Source of the DNA: Phycisphaeraceae bacterium
GTDB taxonomy: Bacteria; Planctomycetota; Phycisphaerae; Phycisphaerales; SM1A02
NCBI GenBank assembly: GCA_019636735.1
Contig: JAHBWY010000005.1
Coordinates: 28,117 to 92,116 of the forward strand
Length of the DNA: 64,000 bases
Direction of reading: 5' to 3'
Shown: one piece after another, positions 29,213-43,355 of the stretch
Layout: each line of letters begins with the position of its first letter
How positions within the stretch are numbered: the stretch's first letter is position 1
Position numbers and translations under genes: made by a program
The notes under the pieces: model-generated
Seen by the model: the letters and a program-made list of their open reading frames with translations, nothing else
What the model was told of the DNA's origin: nothing
Databases searched by the model: none

Positions 29213-30448
29213 GTGGGCCGATCAACGAGCGCATCCGAAGCAGCGCTCGCGAGTCTGGACGCGGCGCCTTGCTGCCTGCGCTGCGGGTATCCGATCGCGA
29301 CGACCTCCGAATCGCCGGCATGTTCCGAGTGCGGTGAGAGCACGGAGCGATCGCGTAAGGCATGGCGCGAAATGTGGATTCCGGGCGGCCGACGCGAGCG
29401 GCTGGCTCGCTCGCTCGTCCTGATCGCGACCTGCTCCGGAGCTCTCGCCGCCAGTTGGTCGCTGCAGACGCTGCTTCGACTCGAGGTGCTCGGGCCCAGT
29501 TCGGTGACGCCGGGGCCGTTCGGCTTGATCGCGCCGGTCGGTGCGGTGCTCAGGACGGGCCTCGTGATCACACTCATCCCACTCAACATCGTCGCGGCAT
29601 GCATCTGGTGGCGCATCGGGAGTCGGCCGCCGCTGCGGAGACGCGCCGCGAAGGGCTCTCTGCTCATCGTCGCCATGCTCGTCTGGGGATTCTGCACGCT
29701 GCTTCTGATCACACTGCTCGTCGGGGGGACCGTTGAGTCGCTTGATCGGCAGATGCAGACCATTCCCGAGTCGCTCGTGCTCGCGGCCACGCTGGCCGCA
29801 CAGTTCGCGATCTACCCGTGGCCGATGGCGCTCGCGGCGCGGGGGCTTCGAGCCGATCGCGACATCCCGTTCTGGCGCCGAGTCACCGCTCCGTGCGGAG
29901 TCGCAGGCCATGCGCTGCTCATCATCTGCGCCTGGTGCTTCGTGTCCGACGCAATCCTCCTGTTCGAGATGGAACGGGTCTTCGGCGCGATACTCATCCC
30001 GCCCTGGCTTCACTGGCTGATCCTGAAGACCTCGACGCTGCTCTGGAACGGCGGCGTGCCGCTCGCGCTCGCCTTCGTCGCGGGGGCGTCACTCGTGTCC
30101 CTCGCTCAAAGTGCGCAGGCGTTCGGCATCATGCCGTTGCTGAGGCGAACCTCGAGGACTCGCACCATCGTCGCGGCCATGCTCGTGACGATCTCCCTGC
30201 TCTCGATCGTGTGGTTCGGCTGCCTTGTAACCTGCATCCGGTTTGCCGGATTCACCGCGACGGGCGAACCGCAGGCGGATCGGGCTCGCGCCTTCATCGA
30301 GTCGCTGCTCGCCGACCCATTCTCACTGGCGCAGTTGGTCCTGCTTCCCCTGGTCATTCCCGCGGCGTGGATCGCGTGCTCGTGGTGGGCGCGGCGGCTT
30401 GCCTATTCGCCGATGTCCTCCGCCCAGAGGTCGGGCTTCTCGCGCTGA
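29213..30448 (+). CDS. Polytopic membrane protein with N-terminal zinc-ribbon (hypothetical)
   Basis: CCLRCGYPIATTSESPACSECGES (CxxC...CxxC) followed by about 9 hydrophobic helices. Its last 46 nt overlap the convergent deaminase gene. Its 3' ~150 nt recur at about 39385-39519 and 42797-42931. Confidence 0.6.
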   Translation: MGRSTSASEAALASLDAAPCCLRCGYPIATTSESPACSECGESTERSRKAWREMWIPGGRRERLARSLVLIATCSGALAASWSLQTLLRLEVLGPSSVTPGPFGLIAPVGAVLRTGLVITLIPLNIVAACIWWRIGSRPPLRRRAAKGSLLIVAMLVWGFCTLLLITLLVGGTVESLDRQMQTIPESLVLAATLAAQFAIYPWPMALAARGLRADRDIPFWRRVTAPCGVAGHALLIICAWCFVSDAILLFEMERVFGAILIPPWLHWLILKTSTLLWNGGVPLALAFVAGASLVSLAQSAQAFGIMPLLRRTSRTRTIVAAMLVTISLLSIVWFGCLVTCIRFAGFTATGEPQADRARAFIESLLADPFSLAQLVLLPLVIPAAWIACSWWARRLAYSPMSSAQRSGFSR

Positions 30449-30615
30449 AGGCGCTCCATCAGTGCCACGCAGCGCTCGTCGTTCAGCAGGCGCAGCTCGA
30501 CGCCCTCGCGCCTCATCCACTCCTCCGCGCCGAGATAGGTTCGATGCTCGCCGATCACCACGCGCGGGATCCTGAAGAGGATCGCGGTCCCCGAACACAT
30601 GGGACACGGTGAAAG
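30403..30615 (-). pseudogene. Cytosine deaminase copy 1, C-terminal fragment (split by IS66-family insertion)
   Basis: Encodes ...CPMCSGTAILFRIPRVVIGEHRTYLGAEEWMRREGVELRLLNDERCVALMERLQREKPDLWAEDIGE. Collinear with the intact copy 39474..39950 up to the IS junction at 30615/30616. Confidence 0.9.
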
Positions 30616-30632
30616 GTGTCCGTCCCGCGAAC

Positions 30633-32204
30633 CTTTCAATTACCCACATCTTTGGCCAGACAGTAACCGAGGTGGATGTCGGTCAATCTCGCCATGCCGC
30701 GCCATAGGACCATGTTTCCCGGCGGCGCATCGCGGGCCCGGTTCAGATAGCCACCGAGTCGAGCGAGCCTCGTCAGGAAGTTGCCTACCGTCTTCTTTCT
30801 TGAGCCGTCGTTGACCGGGACGAGGCGCTCGAGCAGGTTGATCTCTCTGGAGGTTCGCAGCACCAGCTTCACCGGGAGGTTCGGAGCGCGGTTCATCATC
30901 GTCAGCCACAGCACACGCCATGCCAGAATGCACATGATCGCACTGGCTGACCAGTCGCTCGGCAGTCCGCAGCCCGAGTCCTCGGCCCGACATCCTGACT
31001 TGAGCACCTTTGTGGAATGTCTCGATCTTCCAGCGTAAAAGCGCGTACCACCGAGCTTTTCGATCGCATCGGCCTTCTTCGATCGGATCGAAAGATTGGT
31101 CACGAGCTTCCAGTCGTTCGTCGCGCGGCCCTTAAGCACGCCCCGTTCCTTCGCGTGGATCACACTCAGCACCATGGTTCCAAAGGCTTCTCCTTCCTGA
31201 TGGGCGGGCACATTCTCGATCTGGTGGTACTTCAGCTCCAGCACTGCAAGCCTGACGGCGGCCCTTGTCGTCCTGACCTCGAGGCGATAAAGACAGCCCC
31301 TCACGCGCCGTTCGTCCATCGCGTTGGCCACGGCGCCTGCCGTCCTCCACGCGACGATCGACGCAAGTGCGGAACACAAACTTCTTCGTCCCCAGCGACG
31401 CGCATTCGCTGAACAACTCATATAGATGTCGCCTCCCGGTCGCCGATGTGGATGCAGCGAGCGGCGTCACCGATGTTCGCGGTCGATTGACGCACATTTT
31501 CGCCAGCGGATGCTCTCCTTCAGCTCAATCGGGATGCGAGTGGTGTTGACCGAATGCGTACCCGCGTCGAGACCTCTGCCCTTGGCCGCGTTGGTGCCTT
31601 GAAACCCCTTGCGCTGTCCAGAGCTTGATCGCCGAGACCGAGGGGCACGCCGTCAGTGGTGACGATGAGACTCGAGTGCATGAGGATGCCGCAGACAGTG
31701 TGCATTCGCTGGCGACCCTCTCTCATCCTTGTGACTCATGGCCACCCTGTTATGACACCAATCGCGAAAGTGCTCGCTCACGGTGAATGAGAACTCGGTC
31801 GTGTCGTGCAGTGCAAGGACCCGACCATCGACAAGCTGCCGACACGCCCGCGTGGCCTGCATGTGCCCGGCCAGGATCTCTGCCTCGCTCACACGCTTGT
31901 TGTCAAGAAAGCGATACGCGGCCTTGGTGCTGGCCCAATCACCGCACGCCAGCGGCAGTGACTGGCCGCTTCCTTGAGAGCTGCTCCATGAGTAGACCGA
32001 ACCGCCCAGCCAGTCGGGCATCGGCAAAGCGGCAGCCAGAAGCAAGCTCCTGATTGATCCACGGTCCCATGGCCGCGACTCCATCCGTTAAAAGCGATGC
32101 CATCCATGGCACGTTACTCCCCAGTGATCGGCATGACCAGTCCGTGCCGCAATAACCCAACCCTGTTCAGCGAACCAACAGACAAAGATGTGGGTAATTG
32201 AAAG
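30633..32204 (-). mobile_element. IS4-family (Tn5/IS50-like) element with decayed transposase, nested in the IS66 left end
   Basis: Perfect 22-bp terminal inverted repeats CTTTCAATTACCCACATCTTTG (30633-30654 and reverse complement at 32183-32204). 9-10 bp target duplication CCCGCGAAC(C) at 30624-30633 and 32205-32214. Confidence 0.85.
30636..32084 (-). pseudogene. IS4-family transposase, frameshifted in several places
   Basis: Tn5-like segments are spread over different frames: WASTKAAYRFLDNKRVS...LALHDTTEFSF (31653..32084), GILMHSSLIVTTDGVPLGLGDQ (31520..31726), ...LYELFSECASLG (31132..31497), KVLKSGCRAED / LRTAERLV / ILAWRVLWLTMMNR and LARLGGYLNR (30636..31421, 30640..30993). Confidence 0.8.
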
Positions 32205-32223
32205 CCCGCGAACCGCGATGGGG

Positions 32224-33822
32224 TCACTCTGAATCGGCCTGACGGCGTTGCCACTCATCGGGCAGCCAGTGATCAAGCTCTTCAGCCGGGGTCTTGGGCA
32301 GGTTCACAAGCAACTGCGTGAGGTAGACCTGTGGGTCGACGCCGTGGCGCCGACACGAGCTCGTGAGGCTCGAGAGGATCGCCGCCGTCTCGCCGCCGCA
32401 CGGACTGCCGACGATGAGCGAGTTCTTGCGGTTGAGCGCTTGACGCTTCATCTCGCGTTCGCTCGCGTTGTTGTCGATCGGGACTTCGGAGTCGTTCAGG
32501 AACACCGTCAGCTCGCTCCACTGGTTGAGCGCGTACTGCACCGCGCCCGCCATCGGGTGCTTGGGCAGCAGCACACCCTTCCAGTGCTCGAGCCGCCCCC
32601 GGATCATCTCCACGATCGGCCCGGACCTGTCCCGCCGGACTTCGGCGCGCGCGTCCGGGGTCGCCTCGCGGATCGATCGCTCGACCGCGAAGAGCGCATC
32701 CATGAGCGTCACCGCTTCGCGTGCGATTCCCGGCTCGCTCTTCTCGAGGTCGACGAACTTCCGCCGCGCATGCGCCCAGCATCCGGCGCGCGTGATCCCG
32801 TTGCCGGCCACGATCCCGTCGTAGCCGCCGTAAGCATCCGCCACGAGAGTCCCGCAGAAGTCCTTGAGGAACTTCGTCGGACCGTCTCTCGCCCGGCTCG
32901 GCGTGAAGTCGAACACCGTGTACGGATGCGAGTCGTCACCGAGGTAGACCCACATTCGCGCTTGACGCGTCTTCTCCTTCTCCAGGAGCGGCATCACCGT
33001 GTCATCGGTCCCGATCACGCGCGACGAGCGCACGCGATCGGCCATGCGCCGGTAGATCGGCATGGCGATCTCGGCGACATCGCGGCACCAGGTGGAGAGC
33101 GTCGATCGTGAGAGATCCAGGCCGTTGCGGCTGAAGATGTTTTCAAGTCTGTACAGCGGCAGGTAATCCGCGAACTTGCTCGTGACCACGAAGGCGAGCA
33201 GTCCGGGGCCGGCCATGCCCTTGTCGATCGCGGACGCGTCCTTCCGGGGCGCGGTCTCGACCTGGCCGCCGAGTCCCTCGCGATCGCAGTCGCGGCAGGC
33301 GTAGGTGTGGCGGCGATGGTGCCAGCGCTCGAAGTGGCCGGGGATGAACTCGACCTGCCAGCTTTCCTCGCATCCGATGCGGGTGCGCATCTGGCCGCAG
33401 CACTTGCAGGGCTTCTCGGCGTCGGGGAGATCATGCTCGACGGTGCGGACGGGCAGGTGCTCGAGGTCGGCGATGCGGCGGCGGCCGTGAGCCCCGGAAC
33501 GCTTCGCGTCGAGGCGACGCGCGTCGGCGCGGTCATCATCGGCAGCGCTCACCTCCGTCGGGAGCTCGAGCGGCCGCGCCTCGAGCTGCGTGGCGAACTC
33601 CAGCAGCAACTGGCCGAGCTCGACCACGGTCGACAGCCGATCCGCGCGCGGTCCGTAGAGACGCTTGCACAGCTTCAGAAGTTGCGCTTCGAGCCAGGCG
33701 ATCTTTGCGTCGCGATGCGCGAGCGACGCATCCTTCTCCGCGACATGAGACATCAGCATCGCGCAGAGCGCCTTCAGGGCATCGACATCTTCGGGAAGCT
33801 CGATCGCGGCCGCGTCGTCCAT
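32224..33822 (-). CDS. tnpC: IS66-family transposase TnpC
   Basis: 532 aa. N-terminal leucine-zipper region, zinc-finger CKCCGQMRTRIG...YACRDCD, DDE core with ...IGTDDTVMPLL... and ...AGCWAHARRKF... Confidence 0.9.
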   Translation of the reverse strand: MDDAAAIELPEDVDALKALCAMLMSHVAEKDASLAHRDAKIAWLEAQLLKLCKRLYGPRADRLSTVVELGQLLLEFATQLEARPLELPTEVSAADDDRADARRLDAKRSGAHGRRRIADLEHLPVRTVEHDLPDAEKPCKCCGQMRTRIGCEESWQVEFIPGHFERWHHRRHTYACRDCDREGLGGQVETAPRKDASAIDKGMAGPGLLAFVVTSKFADYLPLYRLENIFSRNGLDLSRSTLSTWCRDVAEIAMPIYRRMADRVRSSRVIGTDDTVMPLLEKEKTRQARMWVYLGDDSHPYTVFDFTPSRARDGPTKFLKDFCGTLVADAYGGYDGIVAGNGITRAGCWAHARRKFVDLEKSEPGIAREAVTLMDALFAVERSIREATPDARAEVRRDRSGPIVEMIRGRLEHWKGVLLPKHPMAGAVQYALNQWSELTVFLNDSEVPIDNNASEREMKRQALNRKNSLIVGSPCGGETAAILSSLTSSCRRHGVDPQVYLTQLLVNLPKTPAEELDHWLPDEWQRRQADSE

Positions 33823-33867
33823 GACGACATCCTCTCCGCGCCAGGCCCCGGCGCGGATGCAGGGAAA

Positions 33868-34237
33868 TCACGAACTTCGTGCGAATCGCTTCACGCGCTT
33901 CAGGCTCCGCAGGTCGACGCCGTCGAGCAGCATCGCCAGCTCGCTCGCGCGCAGCTCGATCGATGCACCTTCGTCGGCGCGAGGCAGACGGAAGGTGCCC
34001 GCCTCGAGCCGCTTGTACCAGAGCGCGTAGCCGTCGCGATCCCAGTAGAGAATCTTGAGGCGATCGCCTCCGCGCGAACGGAAGACGAAGAGGTGGCCGC
34101 TGCGAGGGTCCTGGCCGATCACTGACTGCGCCATCTCCGCGAGCCGATCGAAGCCGCGGCGCATGTCGGCGGGCGTCGTCGCCAGCCAGATGCGTGGCGC
34201 GCCTCGATCGAGCTGCGCGAGCGACGGTAGCGAGATC
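33868..34237 (-). pseudogene. tnpB: IS66 accessory protein TnpB, separated from its ATG by the IS256 insertion
   Basis: ...IWLATTPADMRRGFDRLAEMAQSVIGQDPRSGHLFVFRSRGGDRLKILYWDRDGYALWYKRLEAGTFRLP... The original ATG-ATC-TCG start now lies at 35702-35694, on the far side of the IS256 element. Confidence 0.8.
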
Positions 34238-35694
34238 GGTAAGGTTCGGAAGATTGCGCAGATTTGAAAAAGCAGCTCCCGCGCTGGAAGGTGTTGGTGT
34301 GTTGGAACAACCCCTTTCCAGAGGAGAGCTGCATGGACAGCGTAGCGAGCGGATCGACGGAAGTCGCGGAGTGCGCGACGGAGTCGTTGAAAGCGGCGGT
34401 GACGGTGGACGCGGAGAAGGTGCGAAGCCATCTGGACGAGATGGTGCGTTCGACGGTCGAGCAGACTCTGAACGCGATGCTGGAGGTGGAGGCGGACCAG
34501 GCGTGCGGGGCTGGTCGTTACGAGTGTTCGCCGGATCGTCTGACACTCGAGCGGGAGCTACGAGCGACGCTGGAGACGAAGGCGGGCTCGGTGAAGCCTG
34601 CTGTCCCGCGGCTTCGAGAAAGCTGCCGCTCGAGTCGATGATCATCGAGCGGTATCGTCGTCGGGAGATTTTTCGGTGGAGGAGCGCTGGCGGAGATAAA
34701 ATTCTGGCGGGCGTGAGCAGTGTCGGGTGGAGGACATCACGGAGCGCTGTGGGGATCGCGGGTGAGCCGCGAGCACGGTGAGCGGTCTGCCGCAGAAGGT
34801 ACGGCCAGATCGAGTCGTAGCGCAGCCGTCGGACCGAGGGGCGAACACGCGCACGTACCTGGACGGATCTGGGCTGAAGCGGAGCTGGGGCGGGGAGGTG
34901 AAGAGCGTGGCGGTGCTGGTGGCGATCGGGGTGAATCAGGAGGGCTTCCGCGAGATCCTTGGAGGGCGGAGGGGACGAAGGAGGACACGGAGAGCTGGCG
35001 CTCGTTCCTTCGGCATTTGAAGGAGCGCGGCCTGAGGGGTGTTCGGCTGGTGGTGAGCGACAAGTGCCTCGGGGGCTGGTCGAGGGCGTTGGGAGTTCTT
35101 CCCCGAGTAGCGTAATGGCAGCGATGCGTGGTGCACTTCTATCGCAATGATGACAGTGGTGCCAAAGGGTCGGGTGCAGGAGGCCGTGGCGATGCTGAAG
35201 ACGATCCACGCCCAGGAGGACGCGCGGAGCGCGGAGGAGAAGTCGAAGGATCGCGCAGAAGCTCGAGCTGCTTCGGCTGGACGAAGGCAGCGGAGCTCGT
35301 ACGTCGGCGTGCTGGAGACGCTGTCGTGGCCATGTCGTTCCCGGGAGCACTGGGCGCAGTCTTCGGACGAACAACCCGCTCGAGCGTCTGAATCGCGAGA
35401 TCCGCCGTCGGACTCGGGTGGTGGGATTTTCCCGGACGGGTCAGTCGGGCGCGATGCTGGTGGCGGCCCGGCTTCGTCACATGTCGGCGACGAAGTGGGG
35501 CTTGAGGCGGTACATGGACATGAGTCGATTGCGGGAGCTCGATGCGTCCCGCGCGGAGTCATCGGCCGCAGCGGCGTAGCTGCGGCCCCACGCTGGCAAG
35601 GCTGCGCCCCTCTTGATGGGGGCTCCGCCTTGCCAGCGATCACCTTCCCACGGAGGCTGCTTGATCAATTGTGCGCAACTTGACGGACGCTACC
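34238..35694 (+). mobile_element. IS256-family element with heavily frameshifted transposase, nested at the IS66 tnpA/tnpB junction
   Basis: Imperfect 30-bp terminal inverted repeats (GGTAAGGTTCGGAAGATTGCGCAGATTTGA versus GGTAGCGTCCGTCAAGTTGCGCACAATTGA, 21/30 match). 8-bp target duplication GCGAGATC at 34230-34237 and 35695-35702. IS256-type transposase pieces lie in at least 5 frame segments (EQTLNAMLEVEADQACGAGRYE; IIERYRRRE; LKRSWGGEVKSVAVLVAIGVNQEGFREILG; WRSFLRHLKERGLRGVRLVVSDKCLG; VHFYRN; AMLKTIHAQED). Confidence 0.85.
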
Positions 35695-35700
35695 GCGAGA

Positions 35701-36030
35701 TCATGACGCGGCCTCGGCGTCGAGACGCTCGAGCCGAACGACGAACCGTGCGACCCACGCCTCGTCGGCGCCGGATGCGATCTCGATCCGTCGTCCACCG
35801 GCAATCGTGATCACAACGCCGGGACCCGAGATCGAAGGTGGCGCCGCGAGCTCGACGAAGGACGGGTGATCATCGCGTCGATGCGACGCCGAGCCATCGC
35901 CTGCGAGCATGCGTCGCCATCGATGGAACGAGCTCGGCGACACCCCGTGCACCCTGCAGAACTCGACGATGCTCAGTCCGCTCCGACGCTGCTCGCGCAG
36001 CAGCCGGCGCCAATGCGCGTGATCATGCAT
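35701..36030 (-). CDS. tnpA: IS66 accessory protein TnpA
   Basis: 109 aa. HTH-like ...WRRLLREQRRSGLSIVEFCRVHGVSPSSFHRWRR..., typical of IS66 orf1. Confidence 0.85.
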   Translation of the reverse strand: MHDHAHWRRLLREQRRSGLSIVEFCRVHGVSPSSFHRWRRMLAGDGSASHRRDDHPSFVELAAPPSISGPGVVITIAGGRRIEIASGADEAWVARFVVRLERLDAEAAS

Positions 36031-36088
36031 CCACGAAGTGTCGACGCCGGCGGCCCGTCATGGAAGACGGGTTTCGCGGGACGGACGC

Positions 36089-36360
36089 GGTGAAAGCGTG
36101 CTCACCAGTGTGAGCGACCGCCAGTCGCGCCGGCGCCCGGCGCGGCGGATGCAGTCAACCTCCGCATGCGCCGTGGGGTCGCCGCTCTGCACGCGCTGGT
36201 TGTGGCCTGCCGCCACGACGCGCCCGCTCGGGCCGAGCAGCGCCGAGCCGATGGGAATGCCGCCCTCGCGCCAGCTCTTCTCCGCCTGCTCGATCGCCGC
36301 GAGCTCAGTGCGAGCCGTGGTGATCGGTGATCCCGACCTGACTTGTTGCTCGACTTTCAC
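36089..36360 (-). pseudogene. Cytosine deaminase copy 1, N-terminal fragment
   Basis: MKVEQQVRSGSPITTARTELAAIEQAEKSWREGGIPIGSALLGPSGRVVAAGHNQRVQSGDPTAHAEVDCIRRAGRRRDWRSLTLVSTLSP, interrupted exactly before the CPMC zinc ligands. Confidence 0.9.
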
Positions 36361-36440
36361 ATCGCATCGTGGCGCTCCGTCAGGATGGCCGTTTCAGCGT
36401 CCTGCGAGCATCACGGTTGAGCGAGTCCCTTACCGCGCGG

Positions 36441-37244
36441 TCACCCCCGCCTCCGGCCGCGAGTGCGCAGTGCGACCAGCGCCAGGAGCAAGGCGGCGCT
36501 GGGCGCGGGAACTGCCTGCGCCCGAAGAAGGAATACACCGTTACCTCCTAGTGCTGGGAATGAGTTGAGGCTCTGAATGACACCCGGAAACTGCGCATTC
36601 CAGGTCCCGCTTGGTGCGGTAGAAAACCACGAGCGATCAAGCGTCGGAACGCTGGTATCAATCGGCGCTGCAAATCCATTACTAACTGTTACGCTTACGC
36701 CCACAACAATATTGGCGAATGCGCTCACATCTGTCGGCGCCACGGTAACCGATTGAAACACATTCGACTTGATCGCGCCGGGATCGATCAGGGCACTCCA
36801 ACTCCCCAGATGGGTCATGCCGTTTGCGGGATCACCATCATTGTCGCCCCACAGATGGACATTGAAGGGAGCGCCGGCGCTGACACCCGCCGAGGAGGTA
36901 CTGCCCGCGAGGCCAAATGTGACCTGGATACTGGTGATGAGCGAGCCGCTCAGATTGACCGCGAAGACATTCATCCACGCAGCATCTGCAGTGTAACCAC
37001 TGAAGCCTCCTGCGGTGTTCGCCACGCCGTCATCCCACTGATAGGCGAAGTCGGCCGAAGCCGTCGCCGACAGAAGAGCAAGGCCGATCGATGCGATCGA
37101 CGCCGCTACGATGTGCCCGGTCGCCACATCAGACACGCACCGTTCTCGCGCGGCCTTTGCATTCATGGTGTCCGACTTAGGCTTGTGATCGCTGGCGGCT
37201 CGCCCCTGCCATGTTGTTGGCGCCTGGATCTGTGTCATCATCAC
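36441..37244 (-). CDS. PEP-CTERM-like anchored secreted protein, variant A
   Basis: C-terminus AVPAPSAALLLALVALRTRGRRRG (P-x-P motif + TM helix + Arg cluster). Signal-peptide-like IVAASIASIGLALLSATASA. Its start overlaps the stop of the upstream HAF gene (TGATG). Confidence 0.65.
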   Translation of the reverse strand: MMMTQIQAPTTWQGRAASDHKPKSDTMNAKAARERCVSDVATGHIVAASIASIGLALLSATASADFAYQWDDGVANTAGGFSGYTADAAWMNVFAVNLSGSLITSIQVTFGLAGSTSSAGVSAGAPFNVHLWGDNDGDPANGMTHLGSWSALIDPGAIKSNVFQSVTVAPTDVSAFANIVVGVSVTVSNGFAAPIDTSVPTLDRSWFSTAPSGTWNAQFPGVIQSLNSFPALGGNGVFLLRAQAVPAPSAALLLALVALRTRGRRRG

Positions 37245-39112
37245 TCACCTTCCTGTTGCTGGCTCATTACAAGCAGCGCGAGTGCCACCGCGGCCTCGAG
37301 CTGCGCCTTGCTCTTTCCCGCCGACCATTGGACGAACTGCTCGTCCGTTTCGAATCCAAGAGCGGCGAGGAACGAGTCCAGGCGATCCTGGGCGCTCCCG
37401 ATGCTCTCCACTCCTGTACGCAGGAATTCCGACGACTCACAGCAGATCGGATCGATTGTGAGCAGATCGTCACCGCTGCTCCAGTTCCCGATCAGGACCG
37501 CCAGGTCGTAGCCGTCGATCTTGACCTCTCCCTCAGGCGGTGTCGGGCCCAGGTCGAATGGACAGGCCTCGCTGCCTACTGAGCCCCAATGTCCAAGGAG
37601 CGCCGCCAGATCGGAACCGTCGATCCGATCATTCCCGTCGAAGTCCATCAGGTGGGCGAGCTTGTAGAGCGTGGTTCCTGCGATCACGAGCACCATGCCG
37701 CGATCGTTGACGGACGCCGCGAATGGGAGCTCGCCCTCGATCGTGCAGGCTCTGGTCACGGTGGCAAGATCAACGGCGCACCAGTCCGTTTCGAGGTCCT
37801 CCCCGCCCGGGTGCTCCCAGATGACGGCATGCGGACCGCCGCCAGCAGACTCCGACTCCTCTTCCTCCTCGACAAGTGGAACGGGTGAACGGAAGCCGGT
37901 GACTCGGATCAAGCCGTCGGCGCCGATCGAGATCGACTCCGCGCCGCTGGCATCGTTCGGCTCTTCGAGGAATGTTCCCAGATTGAGGTAAGGAAGGTCG
38001 TCGCTTCCAAGCGACCAGATCCACGCGTTGCGAACGCAGTCTTGGAAGGCAGGCGGAGCCTGCTGGCCAACGCCGACGGCCAGGCATCGCCCTTCTTCGC
38101 CAAGCGCAATTGCACGAGCGATGTTCTCGAAGTACAGCCAGTCGGACTCGCCGTCGGGCTGGTGCGGGTATGGCAGCAGACCGCCGCTGGGAGTCGAACC
38201 CATTGACCAGCCGTACGAATCCCGGGTTCGGCGGTCGGACGGGCAGTCGGCAAGGCTGAACTCCGCAGTGCACGGCCCAGGTTGCGGCGTCCTCTGCACG
38301 AACCCGACGGCCGCGGTGCCGGTCCCGGTGATCGCATACGGTCGGGCCATCGTGGGCAGCTCCCAATCTGATGGAAGCTCCTCTCCAAAATCACTGGACG
38401 ACCCAGTCCATTGAATGGCAAAGGGAAGGGATCCCCCTTCGCTATCCGAGCAGAACGAGAATGTCCCCACCACGATCGGCTCGAACCCGTCGGAGAGCGC
38501 CCACGCCAACCCGGTCCGAGGATCCGGCTCGCTTGCCGGCGATGATTGAGGATGCGGCGGCAAGTAGGGCGAAAGGTCGAAGACATCGTGCCCTGTTGAA
38601 CTGCTGCTCTCGCGCCACCAGATGCACGGCAGCGCGTTGCTCAATGCGGCGGTGGCGCCGGGATCGGGCAGCACGCCACCGACGACACTCCCGACATCGT
38701 TGATGCCCAGGGCCACTGACGCATCGGCGCCGCTTGGATGAAGCGAATGCAGCCCGGCGGAGAGCCCGTAGAGATCACGCGGAAGCCAGAGAAATGCCTC
38801 GGTCGTCTGACTCGAGCCTTCACCAACGACCCTCGATCCGGCGACGGCGCCATCGTCATTCGAGACAACGCGCGTGGTGATCGAATGGCGCCCCGAAATG
38901 AGCACGCTCGTCCCACTGCGAATCGAAGTCACAATGGGCACTGCCCGGTAGCGCTCGCAAGTCTGCGGCATTCCTCGCGCCCCAGCGACCGCCAGCAGGT
39001 GAATCGCTGCGAGCGCGGTCAGAGTCGGCGCGAGCCGACGGACGACGGACGACGGACGACGGACGACGGACGACGGACGACGGACGACGGACGACGGACT
39101 CAAGTTGTTCAT
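37241..39112 (-). CDS. HAF-repeat extracellular protein with dockerin-like EF-hand pair, copy A (in frame)
   Basis: GGAGGAG Shine-Dalgarno at 39116-39122, ATG at 39112, (PSSVVRR)x3, signal core LAPTLTALAAIHLLAVAGARG. HAF-like repeats (TEAFLWLP...ALGINDVGSVVGG). C-terminal DFDGNDRIDGSDLAALLGHWG and KIDGYDLAVLIGNWS. Confidence 0.75.
   Translation of the reverse strand: MNNLSPSSVVRRPSSVVRRPSSVVRRLAPTLTALAAIHLLAVAGARGMPQTCERYRAVPIVTSIRSGTSVLISGRHSITTRVVSNDDGAVAGSRVVGEGSSQTTEAFLWLPRDLYGLSAGLHSLHPSGADASVALGINDVGSVVGGVLPDPGATAALSNALPCIWWRESSSSTGHDVFDLSPYLPPHPQSSPASEPDPRTGLAWALSDGFEPIVVGTFSFCSDSEGGSLPFAIQWTGSSSDFGEELPSDWELPTMARPYAITGTGTAAVGFVQRTPQPGPCTAEFSLADCPSDRRTRDSYGWSMGSTPSGGLLPYPHQPDGESDWLYFENIARAIALGEEGRCLAVGVGQQAPPAFQDCVRNAWIWSLGSDDLPYLNLGTFLEEPNDASGAESISIGADGLIRVTGFRSPVPLVEEEEESESAGGGPHAVIWEHPGGEDLETDWCAVDLATVTRACTIEGELPFAASVNDRGMVLVIAGTTLYKLAHLMDFDGNDRIDGSDLAALLGHWGSVGSEACPFDLGPTPPEGEVKIDGYDLAVLIGNWSSGDDLLTIDPICCESSEFLRTGVESIGSAQDRLDSFLAALGFETDEQFVQWSAGKSKAQLEAAVALALLVMSQQQEGE
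39036..39098 (-). repeat. Heptanucleotide microsatellite (TCCGTCG)x9 within the 5' coding region
   Basis: Nine perfect tandem units counted base by base (plus-strand CGACGGA, 39036-39098). Confidence 0.95.
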
Positions 39113-39473
39113 CGACTCCTCCGCAGGTGAACCCGAGGTGGACCACTCGGAGAGAACCGGGTGGCCTGGATTTGCGGAAACCGGACTTGTTGGACTTTAC
39201 CGCCGTTCCGGAGCAGGTCAAGGCGCTGCGAGCAGATCTCGATGGAGCAGAATGGCATTTCCTGAGTGTTGAGGGGGCGGACGGTGGTCAAATGGGCCGT
39301 TGCAACGAGATCGCCGAGTTCCTTCGTTCCCAACACCCCAGCGTTCACCACGGCGTCGGCTCCCTGCTCACTCCCCTGCTCTCGGATCCCCCATCACTGG
39401 CGCAGTTGGTCCTGCTTCCCCTGGTCATTCCCGCGGCGTGGATCGCGTGCTCGTGGTGGGCGCGGCGGCTTGC

Positions 39474-39950
39474 CTACTCGCCGATGTCCTCGGCCCAGAG
39501 GTCGGGCTTCTCGCGCTGAAGGCGCTCCATCAGTGCCACACAGCGCTCGTCGTTCAACAGGCGCAGCTCAATGCCCTCGCGCCTCATCCACTCCTCCGCG
39601 CCGAGATAGGTGCGGTGCTCGCCGATCACCACGCGCGGGATCCTGAAGAGGATCGCGGTCCCCGAACACATGGGACACGGCGAGAGCGTGCTCACCAGCG
39701 TGAGCGACCGCCAGTCGCGCCGGCGCCCGGCGCGGCGGATGCAGTCAACCTCCGCATGCGCCGTGGGGTCGCCGCTCTGCACGCGCTGGTTGTGGCCTGC
39801 CGCCACGACGCGCCCGCTCGGGTCAAGCAGCGCCGAGCCGATGGGAATGCCGCCCTCGCGCCAGCTCTTCTCCGCCTGCTCGATCGCCGCGAGCCCAGTG
39901 CGAGCCGTGGTGATCGGTGATCCCGACCTGACTTGTTGCTCGACTTTCAC
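39474..39950 (-). CDS. Cytosine deaminase, yeast Fcy1-type (CMP/dCMP zinc-deaminase fold), copy 2, intact
   Basis: HAEVDCI...TLSPCPMCSG zinc motifs. The C-terminus NDERCVALMERLQREKPDLWAEDIGE closely parallels the Fcy1 C-terminus (...DDERCKKIMKQFIDERPQDWFEDIGE, quoted from memory). Confidence 0.8.
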   Translation of the reverse strand: MKVEQQVRSGSPITTARTGLAAIEQAEKSWREGGIPIGSALLDPSGRVVAAGHNQRVQSGDPTAHAEVDCIRRAGRRRDWRSLTLVSTLSPCPMCSGTAILFRIPRVVIGEHRTYLGAEEWMRREGIELRLLNDERCVALMERLQREKPDLWAEDIGE

Positions 39951-40030
39951 ATCGCATCGTGGCGCTCCGTCAGGATGGCCGTTTCAGCGTCCTGCGAGCA
40001 TCACGGTTGAGCGAAGCCCTTACCGGGCGG

Positions 40031-40696
40031 TCACCCCCGCCTTCGGCCGCGAGTGCGCAGTGCGACCAGCGCCAGGAGCAAGGCGGCGCTGGGCGCGGGA
40101 ACCGCGAAGCTCATGTACTCGATCATGCCGGCTACGGCGACTGTAAAGCCTTGAGGCGGCGGGGGCGGAATCAGTCGCACCCGGTCAAACGGCGTGACCG
40201 ACTGGAAGCCTACGAACACCGCCACTGCGTCATTGGGCGGCATTCCAAAGGGGATGTTGCTTGCAAAGATATCCCCGACGAGCGTATCGCCGAGGTAGAA
40301 CTCAACATGAACACCCATGTAGTTCAACGGCCGGGTGCCCCAGAACTTCAAGGGGGCTGCGAACTCCATGTTGATTTCGTAGATGCCTGGCGGCACGGGG
40401 TTCCATATGTCCTTACCCCCAATTGCCGGCTTCAGAGCCTGCGGATAGCCTGGATTCCACGCGTAGGCCGACCAGTCGTCCCCGTCGGTGAAACTCACGC
40501 CCTGCGGGGCCCATTGATTTGTTATAAGTGTGTTGGCCGGAACATCACCGAAATTGACCTGCGTGATGTTCGAGGCACCGCCAGCCGCCGACACCCACGC
40601 TGCTTTGTCAATGGTGTAGGACACGCCCGCCACGGCGTGCCCGGTCGTGACAGCGAACACGCACAGTACCGCCGCTCTCTGATCCTGTTTCATCAC
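40031..40696 (-). CDS. PEP-CTERM-like anchored secreted protein, variant B
   Basis: Same C-terminal AVPAPSAALLLALVALRTRGRRRG and same TGATG start overlap as variant A, but an unrelated 190-aa passenger (signal peptide AAVLCVFAVTTGHAVAG). Confidence 0.65.
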   Translation of the reverse strand: MMKQDQRAAVLCVFAVTTGHAVAGVSYTIDKAAWVSAAGGASNITQVNFGDVPANTLITNQWAPQGVSFTDGDDWSAYAWNPGYPQALKPAIGGKDIWNPVPPGIYEINMEFAAPLKFWGTRPLNYMGVHVEFYLGDTLVGDIFASNIPFGMPPNDAVAVFVGFQSVTPFDRVRLIPPPPPQGFTVAVAGMIEYMSFAVPAPSAALLLALVALRTRGRRRG

Positions 40697-42524
40697 TCAC
40701 CTTCCTGTTGCTGGCTCATTACAAGCAGCGCGAGTGCCACCGCGGCCTCGAGCTGCGCCTTGCTTTTTCCCGCCGACCATTGGACGAACTGCTCGTCCGT
40801 TTCGAATCCAAGAGCGGCGAGGAACGAGTCCAGGCGATCCTGGGCGCTCCCGATGCTCTCCACTCCTGTACGCAGGAATTCCGACGACTCACAGCAGATC
40901 GGATCGATTGTGAGCAGATCGTCACCGCTGCTCCAGTTCCCGATCAGGACCGCCAGGTCGTAGCCGTCGATCTTGACCTCTCCCTCGGGCGGTGTCGGGC
41001 CCAGGTCGAATGGACAGGCCTCGCTGCCTTCTGCACCCCACACTCCTAGCAACATTGCCAGATCTGACCCGTCAACCCGATCATTCCCGTCGAAGTCCAT
41101 CAGGTGGGCGAGCTTGTAGAGCGTGGTTCCTGCGATCACGAGCACCATGCCGCGATCGTTGACGGACGCCGCGAATGGGAGCTCGCCCTCGATCGTGCAG
41201 GCTCTGGTCACGGTGGCAAGATCAACGGCGCACCAGTCCGTTTCGAGGTCCTCCCCGCCCGGGTGCTCCCAGATGACGGCATGCGGACCGCCGCCAGCAG
41301 ACTCCGACTCCTCTTCCTCCTCGACAAGTGGAACGGGTGAACGGAAGCCGGCGACTCGGACGCTGTCGGGCGCCGATCGAGATCACCGATTCTTCCGCCG
41401 GCATCGCCCGATTTTTCGAGGAATGTACCCAGATTGAGGTAAGGCCGTCGCTTCCAAGCGACCAGATCCACGCGTTGCGAACGCAGTCTTGGAAGGCAGG
41501 CGGAGCCTGCTGGCCAACGCCGACGGCCAGGCATCGCCCTTCTTCGCCAAGCGCAATTGCACGAGCGATGTTCTCGAAGTACAGCCAGTCGGACTCGCCG
41601 TCGGGCTGGTGCGGGTATGGCAGCAGACCGCCGCTGGGAGTCGAACCCATTGACCAGCCGTACGAATCCCGGGTTCGGAGGAGTGTGGGGCAGTTGGGTT
41701 GTCCTAGCTCGGTCGAACACGGCCCAGGTTGCGGCGTCCTCTGCACGAACCCGACGGCCGCGGTGCCGGTCCCGGTGATCGCATACGGTCGGGCCATCGT
41801 GGGCAGCTCCCAATCTGATGGAAGCTCCTCTCCAAAATCACTGGACGACCCAGTCCATTGAATGGCAAAGGGAAGGGATCCCCCTTCGCTATCCGAGCAG
41901 AACGAGAATGTCCCCACCACGATCGGCTCGAACCCGTCGGAGAGCGCCCACGCCAACCCGGTCCGAGGATCCGGCTCGCTTGCCGGCGATGATTGAGGAT
42001 GCGGCGGCAAGTAGGGCGAAAGGTCGAAGAACTCGTGCCCTGTTGAACTGCTGCTCTCGCGCCACCAGATGCACGGCAGCGCGTTGCTCAATGCGGCGGT
42101 GGCGCCGGGATCGGGCAGCACGCCACCGACGACACTCCCGACATCGTTGATGCCCAGGGCCACTGACGCATCGGCGCCGCTTGGATGAAGCGAATGCAGC
42201 CCGGCGGAGAGCCCGTAGAGATCACGCGGAAGCCAGAGAAATGCCTCGGTCGTCTGACTCGAGCCTTCACCAACGACCCTCGATCCGGCGACGGCGCCAT
42301 CGTCATTCGAGACAACGCGCGTGGTGATCGAATGGCGCCCCGAAATGAGCACGCTCGTCCCACTGCGAATCGAAGTCACAATGGGCACTGCCCGGTAGCG
42401 CTCGCAAGTCTGCGGCATTCCTCGCGCCCCAGCGACCGCCAGCAGGTGAATCGCTGCGAGCGCGGTCAGAGTCGGCGCGAGCCGACGGACGACGGACGAC
42501 GGACGACGGAATCAAGTTGTTCAT
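40693..42524 (-). pseudogene. HAF-repeat/dockerin-like protein, copy B (out of frame at the leader, frameshifted internally)
   Basis: ATG 42524 opens only a 73-aa ORF. The body is split into 41222..42418 and 40693..41211, with at least 3 frame changes between about 41340 and 41460 relative to copy A. Elsewhere it is near-identical to copy A. Confidence 0.8.
42483..42510 (-). repeat. Heptanucleotide microsatellite (TCCGTCG)x4
   Basis: Four perfect units. This is 35 nt shorter than in copy A, which shifts the frame. Confidence 0.95.
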
Positions 42525-42885
42525 CGACTCCTCCGCAGGTGAACCCGAGGTGGACCACTCGGAGAGAACCGGGTGGCCTGGATTTGCGGAAACCGGACTT
42601 GTTGGACTTTACCGCCGTTCCGGAGCAGGTCAAGGCGCTGCGAGCAGATCTCGATGGAGCAGAATGGCATTTCCTGAGTGTTGAGGGGGCGGACGGTGGT
42701 CAAATGGGCCGTTGCAACGAGATCGCCGAGTTCCTTCGTTCCCAACACCCCAGCGTTCACCACGGCGTCGGCTCCCTGCTCACTCCCCTGCTCTCGGATC
42801 CCCCATCACTGGCGCAGTTGGTCCTGCTTCCCCTGGTCATTCCCGCGGCGTGGATCGCGTGCTCGTGGTGGACGCGGCGGCTTGC

Positions 42886-43355
42886 CTACTCGCCGATGTC
42901 CTCGGCCCAGAGGTCGGGCTTCTCGCGCTGAAGGCGCTCCATCAGTGCCACACAGCGCTCGTCGTTCAACAGGCGCAGCTCAATGCCCTCGCGCCTCATC
43001 CACTCCTCCGCGCCGAGATAGGTGCGGTGCTCGCCGATCACCACGCGCGGGATCCTGAAGAGGATCGCGGTCCCCGAACACATGGGACACGGCGAGAGCG
43101 TGCTCACCAGCGTGAGCGACCGCCAGTCGCGCCGGCGCCCGGCGCGGCGGATGCAGTCAACCTCCGCATGCGCCGTGGGGTCGCCGCTCTGCACGCGCTG
43201 GTTGTGGCCTGCCGCCACGACGCGCCCGCTCGGGCCGGGCAAGCCGCCGAGCCGATGGGAATGCCGCCTTCGAGCCAGCTCGTCTCCGCCTGCTCGATCG
43301 CCGCGTCGAGACCGGCGCGGATGGCGGCATCGGGAGGCCAGGCGGAGACGCTCAC
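42886..43355 (-). pseudogene. Cytosine deaminase copy 3 (frameshifted; divergent N-terminus)
   Basis: From PSGRVVAAGHNQ to the stop it is identical in protein sequence to copy 2 (ORF 42886..43242). The N-terminal part ...DAAIRAGLDAAIEQAETSWLEGGIPIGSA lies in another frame (ORF 43104..43472; candidate GTG at 43355). The junction near 43235-43245 has 10 nt where copy 2 has 8. Confidence 0.75.

Follow-up and report, generated by a model that had tools for sequence, protein, structure and literature searches.

Within the window, the whole stretch of 64,000 nucleotides analysed here, self-BLAST revealed a minus-strand unit of ~3.5 kb that the assembly places twice in head-to-tail order and that is then followed by a partial third copy. 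Each unit carries, in this order, a gene for a HAF-like/dockerin exoprotein, a small PEP-CTERM-like gene and a deaminase gene. Read along the plus strand, the array begins with the 3' end of a membrane gene and deaminase copy 1, which is split by insertion sequences (IS), followed by gene A and HAF-like gene A; it continues with the repeat containing the intact deaminase copy 2, gene B and HAF-like gene B, and ends with the repeat containing deaminase copy 3 and then an epimerase gene. The features considered are the following:

30616..36082, no strand assigned: nested stack of IS elements interrupting deaminase copy 1, at the array's left end
36083..36515, no strand assigned: left shared arm of unit A, which spans two-thirds of deaminase copy 1 (its 5' part), an intergenic stretch of 80 bp, and gene A's stop and tail codons
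36441..37244, minus strand: PEP-CTERM-like gene A, 267 aa from a GTG, or 241 aa if translation begins at the ATG at 37166-37164, the likely native start
36444..36512, minus strand: shared sorting tail VPAPSAALLLALVALRTRGRRRG, in which a PAP motif precedes a hydrophobic helix and a cluster of Arg
36516..37052, minus strand: mature passenger A, a beta-sandwich of the 'DDG...W.N.F...LLRA' family, GC3 0.60
37053..37237, minus strand: composite N-terminal region of A, with 72 A-specific nt, a B-like signal-peptide core and an A-family signal-peptide end
37238..39891, no strand assigned: right shared arm of unit A
37241..39112, minus strand: copy A of the HAF-like/dockerin exoprotein gene, intact (623 aa), with a stop that overlaps the start of gene A
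39474..39950, minus strand: cytidine/cytosine-deaminase-like gene, copy 2, the sole intact copy
40031..40696, minus strand: PEP-CTERM-like gene B, 221 aa, with the mature passenger at 40106-40627
40693..42524, minus strand: HAF-like/dockerin gene, copy B, with the frame shifted by patch 2 (see below) and a leader tract that is 35 bp shorter
42788..43305, no strand assigned: third partial copy of the repeat, with the 3' end of the membrane gene and deaminase copy 3, abutting the epimerase gene

The left arm of unit A matches 39673-40105 over 433 bp at 97.2% identity, and the right arm matches 40690-43305 over 2660 alignment columns at 95.8%; once a few sharply bounded patches are set aside, the arms are ~99.7% identical. 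Shorter third copies were found at 30305-30615 and 43085-43305. The original prediction had described two genes that share only their start and their anchor, with an arm of ~150 bp. The sharing is real, but its extent was underestimated, since the flanks, as parts of the tandem unit, extend over 433 bp to one side and ~2.65 kb to the other. The genome-wide search for further copies of the arm that it had called for showed the arm to be purely local: a 155-bp segment is found at just 2 sites across all 3.43 Mb of the assembly, and either passenger is single-copy.

Genes A and B both overlap the stop of the gene upstream with their start (GAG-TGA-TG), and both proteins terminate in AVPAPSAALLLALVALRTRGRRRG. 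Their tails, 23 codons long (VPAP...RRRG), differ by 1 synonymous change. Nucleotide identity reaches 36512/40102, within the GTT that encodes the Val of VPAP, and then ends, the Ala codon before VPAP being GCA in A and GCG in B; it returns at 37238/40690, one base beyond the ATG. No BLASTN or BLASTP similarity was detected between the divergent blocks enclosed by these points, 36513-37237 (725 bp) and 40103-40689 (587 bp), and in a BLASTP comparison of the two proteins the tail was the sole common part. The ORF listing and direct reading therefore bear out the two ORFs, the TGATG overlap, the common tail and the near-identical downstream DNA that had been proposed, and the nucleotide comparison places the loss of identity before VPAP, as predicted. 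Overall, the differences between units A and B are limited to a few sharply delimited blocks. The largest covers all of the small gene from its start up to the sorting tail. The replacement of one passenger between conserved flanks is supported.

The repeats at the ends of the units were also compared three ways. On the membrane-gene side (30305-30615, 39376-39686 and 42788-43098) copies 2 and 3 are the same and copy 1 is off by 3-5%, and on the deaminase 5' side (36083-36301, 39673-39891 and 43085-43305) copies 1 and 2 are alike and copy 3 is different. This pattern indicates that units A and B have one recent origin and that the array's outer ends are of a different type, and it fits the insertion, through homologous recombination within the deaminase gene, of a foreign or circular unit. 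In the complete genome of a member of the same genus (G003), a single deaminase gene directly follows the epimerase gene, with no Pep/HAF genes there, so the array is lineage-specific. The same genome has three B-type PEP-CTERM genes (G003:C1:309072-311622) ~9 kb from its deaminase (299683-300111), compared with one B-type gene in total in the source genome. The IS stack at 30616-36082 consists of IS66-type tnpA/B/C genes holding two other IS elements; other copies of these elements in the genome are 87-99% identical, none of them exactly so.

Alternatively, A and B could be allelic versions of a single locus from two strains living side by side, either joined by the assembly into a false tandem or captured by one strain through out-of-register recombination. 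The assembly, in 33 contigs, is of an environmental organism, and the units resemble conspecific alleles in being ~99.7% identical outside the patches. Exact repeats between the units reach ~450 bp, which is difficult for short reads, and a stretch of 123 bp (39700-39822) is the same in all three copies of the deaminase, so that a chimeric path is possible. Nevertheless, the deaminase 5' region exists in three distinguishable versions, the contig runs unbroken through the array and the nested IS stack, and assemblers usually collapse or split strain bubbles, whereas their concatenation is rare. We consider this explanation rather unlikely; were it true, the anatomy described here would be the same, but it would represent a population polymorphism instead of paralogy.

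The tail of both proteins has the layout SAALLLALVAL, then RTRGRRRG, then the stop, that is, a hydrophobic stretch and a basic cluster at the very C-terminus, and the AF2 model places a C-terminal helix at residues 223-240 of the 241-aa form of A. The near-invariant Pro-Glu-Pro of TIGR02595/PF07589 is absent, as both tails read V-P-A-P. Curated PEP-CTERM HMMs did not match A or B at E<=0.1, nor at E<=10, and neither protein was among the PF07589 matches of the genome at E<=1. Since these HMMs leave both tails unscored, we refer to the genes as PEP-CTERM-like. Pfam and NCBIfam likewise returned no family for A, B or the HAF-like gene.

An exosortase gene had been suggested as something to look for, and the genome encodes one (G000:C1:304671-305459), which matches PF09721 (E 6.7e-46) and scores 106.4 bits with TIGR02602, against a cut-off of 105.55. 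Together with it, ~29 ORFs carry a C-terminal tail of the form [VI]P[AT]P-hydrophobic-RRRR, most of them reading PAP or PTP, so that the genome has the exosortase and the many tails expected of a PEP-CTERM/exosortase system (PMC1569441; TIGR02595, PF07589, TIGR02602). Haft et al. 2006 (PMC1569441) inferred that PEP-CTERM is a modular domain that spreads within lineages. As in the modular paralogous expansion described there, the tails in the present genome are carried by unrelated passengers and are closer to each other than to those of other genomes, the differences being that the motif is VPAP instead of VPEP and that the curated HMMs miss the tails of both A and B. Since 2006 the modularity of the tail has rested on family-level comparison, whereas here an exchange is visible in place, in near-identical operon copies that carry different passengers. 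Among all 406 pairs of PEP-CTERM-like genes, A and B stand alone with ~99% nucleotide identity between their tails, the next best pair reaching 82%. No paralogue or donor of either passenger was found elsewhere in the genome.

Word-indexed homologue searches with A and B returned the query proteins alone. An exhaustive library search recovered 122 representatives of the passenger A family at E<=1e-3. The best of them is 46% identical and ends in '..LLRASAVPAPGA'; P0003, the nearest homologue of A, is on a contig of 1.2 kb. The family is characterised by the pattern ..Y..DDG...IG....W.N.F....ITSI...FG....F.V.LW.D.D.DP........FQSV.I.....GRSW....G.WLLRA. Between 19 and 24 of 60 relatives have an HMM-recognised PEP-CTERM tail and three have a GC-type dockerin, others ending in VPDSG-, VPLPA- or PTPA-CTERM, and in the same taxonomic family the A-type domain is also found repeated in proteins of ~1000 aa. 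Passenger A is thus one family with alternative C-terminal anchors, as in the 'choice-of-anchor' and GC-type dockerin (NF041540) families of NCBIfam, with the difference that protein A itself matches no curated model and that 2 of the 60 relatives match choice-of-anchor R weakly. In one case (locus L027, G022:C161, 1265-2065; P0032), the A-type domain ends in '..WMIRATGVPANG' and two dockerin-like repeats follow in place of a PEP-CTERM tail; the domain boundary LLRA/IRA is reused there with another anchor.

The AF2 model of A obtained with an alignment (pLDDT 89) is a beta-sandwich between N-terminal and C-terminal helices; the prediction from the single sequence was unusable (pLDDT 43). A Foldseek search of this model against the PDB gave weak matches to beta-sandwiches (CBM61, PHR, phage fibre and receptor-binding domains; best E 2.8e-3), and nothing was found for A with sequence profiles of the PDB. 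The GC3 of passenger A is 0.59-0.60, compared with a mean of 0.79 (sd 0.08) across the 29 PEP-CTERM-like genes, 0.72-0.73 for passenger B and 0.74 for HAF-A. This low value is compatible with a foreign origin of the passenger.

Passenger B belongs to a family recognised by 'AW..AAGG..T.INF ... F.G..S...FDRV' (in full, ..AW..AAGG..T.INF..LP.GT..T.QY...GV.F ... F.G..SD..FDRV ... DN..F.), which whole-genome searches found in 63 of the 101 genomes from the taxonomic family, where its members are often tandem paralogues. A HAF-like/dockerin gene lies directly upstream of B-type genes, on the same strand, in seven of these genomes (G412, G436, G450, G020, G473, G454 and G449), and none of the A-type loci has such a neighbour. 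Since the B family is the usual occupant of the position behind HAF-like genes, and A-type loci never have this neighbour, B is native to this slot and A is the replacement. The direction of the exchange can therefore be read at this locus, the B type being native and the A type imported. The pair of a HAF-like/dockerin gene and a B-type PEP-CTERM gene is conserved in at least eight genera (at least seven besides the present one), which suggests a functional partnership between the two products. At seven loci (L015, L047, L055, L054, L049, L048 and L052) the HAF-like/dockerin gene is followed by one to three B-type PEP-CTERM genes, and the spacing within pairs ranges from a TGATG overlap, as in G450, to ~40 nt.

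A and B are both probably all-beta secreted domains of similar size, so they might be homologues that diverged very fast. However, each passenger has its own large family with distinct motifs, their GC3 values differ (0.60 in A and 0.72 in B), and hhalign of profiles built from the passengers only (60 versus 28 sequences) gave homology probabilities of 0.2-1.3%; with the tails included, the tail alone matched. Furthermore, the flanks are ~100% identical, which rules out gradual divergence. We regard homology of the passengers as extremely improbable. The statement that the passengers are unrelated accordingly stands for the passenger domains and fails at their 5' end, where local alignment of the divergent blocks revealed that the signal-peptide cores of the two genes (CVSDVATGHIVAA in A and CVFAVTTGHAVAG in B) share 76% nucleotide identity over 45 columns. 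The score of this alignment is 38, compared with 21.8 +/- 2.4 in 300 codon shuffles, for which the maximum was 32, and the agreement far exceeds what is expected by chance.

The core in A is shifted by 72 extra nt and lies ~23 nt past the internal ATG at 37166-37164, which is probably the working start of A. By inspection, the putative signal peptides read MKQDQRAAVLCVFAVTTGHAVA|G in B and ..IASIGLALLSATASA|DF in A, and AF2 places the N-terminal helix of A at residues 14-33. The end of the A signal peptide, ..LLSATASA|DF, resembles that of its closest A-family homologue, ..LSAVTASA|DF. With a B-like core followed by an A-family cleavage region, A is a chimera whose A-type part starts within the signal peptide. 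The B-like part is 24% diverged and lies beside flanks at ~100% identity, which means that the recipient differed from the gene B of today and was, we infer, a diverged allele. A single recent swap is for the same reason insufficient, and either a pool of divergent alleles or an older event is required.

The gene upstream of A and B contains GINDxGxVVG-like motifs and a double dockerin-like module. The HAF repeat HMM TIGR02913 scores 11.6 bits on it (E 0.21), below the cut-off of 22.65, and for this reason it is called HAF-like. In comparisons with 40 relatives, its matches were limited to the dockerin module, and no close relatives of this gene or of either arm were found in the collections metagenome_contigs or genome_contigs. 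Differences along the long arm are unevenly distributed, with 6 substitutions in ~2.3 kb and the rest in four patches. Patch 1 (37578-37624 versus 41030-41076) has 17 nucleotide changes and 5 aa changes in the dockerin-like module, patch 2 (37900-37998 versus 41352-41445) has indels of -2, +1 and -4 that shift the frame of HAF-B, and patch 3 (38232-38270 versus 41679-41717) exchanges a loop flanked by two cysteines, PC-TAEFSLAD-CP versus PC-STELGQPN-CP. The fourth difference is in a leader repeat tract (39036-39070 versus 42482) and amounts to 35 bp, or 5 x 7 nt; with the shorter tract, the leader of copy B is out of frame with its start. A diversity-generating retroelement was considered as a source of the patches and rejected, as the substitutions are not adenine-specific.

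Hypervariable surface loci with conserved ends and a replaced middle are known from the central domains of flagellins, the pilE/pilS mini-cassettes of Neisseria and the tandem lpl cluster of S. aureus. The array resembles them in having conserved export and anchoring ends around a non-homologous or mosaic middle, tandem copies, a variable loop with two cysteines and a putatively phase-variable repeat tract in an adjoining gene. It differs from them in having two copies, in belonging to a free-living, environmental host, and in that a whole folded domain from another family was swapped here and not variant segments within one family. The array could be read as a variation locus of the pilE/pilS type, with unit A expressed, the defective or silent unit B as donor, gene-converted mini-cassettes and the heptanucleotide tract as an on/off switch. 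The confinement of the differences between the units to sharp patches, including the two-cysteine loop and the dockerin patch, would agree with this reading, as would the frameshift of HAF-B and its leader tract, shorter by 5 x 7 nt. But there are two units only, gene B is intact and in the coupled position and so not obviously silent, no donor copies were found elsewhere in the genome, and the patches are equally explicable as imported allelic differences. A programmed locus of the pilE/pilS type is therefore, in our view, quite unlikely. We attach as little probability to the corresponding proposal that the array serves a free-living planctomycete to vary an exosortase-anchored display through a gene-converted loop, a dockerin patch and an entire passenger, with the heptanucleotide tract as a further layer. 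If true, such variation might be driven by phage or grazers, and would be a rare case of programmed-looking surface variation outside pathogens.

The original prediction had assigned a more specific role to the edges of the divergent block, with the anchor, its intergenic DNA and the TGATG site acting as dedicated recombination arms for the exchange of cassettes. The breakpoints do fall at the start codon and at the Val of VPAP. Yet homology runs 433 bp and 2.65 kb past the supposed arms, so that the sorting signal and the TGATG site are mere edges of the divergent block, and we obtained no support for their action as arms. The A-type sequence, moreover, starts within the signal peptide and not at the start codon, and the genome has just two copies of the arm. 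The ORFs next to the locus include no recombination genes other than IS transposases (IS66-type and others), and no repeated site was seen; an integron- or shufflon-like system would have a site at every cassette and a cognate site-specific recombinase. With no other such pair among the 406 and no further alleles in public collections, dedicated cassette exchange is very improbable, and of the general system for the modular presentation of passengers that was also proposed we saw no sign, there being two copies, no public alleles and no like pair among the 406. The case is a clear but ordinary instance of domain shuffling, with no dedicated cassette system.

The explanation that we favour, and consider probable, is that the array represents a surface-protein operon of horizontal origin, present in duplicate, one copy of which obtained a passenger of another family through ordinary recombination. 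Gene A would then be composed of three parts, namely the local start with the B-type part of the signal peptide, the A-type signal-peptide end with the beta-sandwich, and the local tail. The swap most likely took place by ordinary recombination, either through the import of a divergent allele from the population, or through a homeologous or illegitimate exchange with crossovers in the conserved VPAP tail codons and inside the signal-peptide region. Since no donor for passenger A or for the small patches was found in the genome or in the public collections searched, the recombination route is one that we infer. The coincidence of the swap edges with functional boundaries may reflect selection, as only in-frame fusions that keep the Sec signal peptide and the exosortase tail would remain surface-anchored. 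The products of A and B are both predicted to be exported by Sec, retained by the C-terminal helix and processed by the lone exosortase, and would thus be displayed at the surface. With two copies as the basis, ongoing exchange at the locus would be speculation.

The identities of tails and passengers also differ at other loci. At loci L056 and L034 the tails (89-93%) are more similar than the passengers (69-71%). At locus L048 (G454:C3) modularity is reversed, as two adjacent B-type genes (1498-2073 and 2074-2775) have passengers that are 91% identical at the nucleotide level and tails that are 61% identical.
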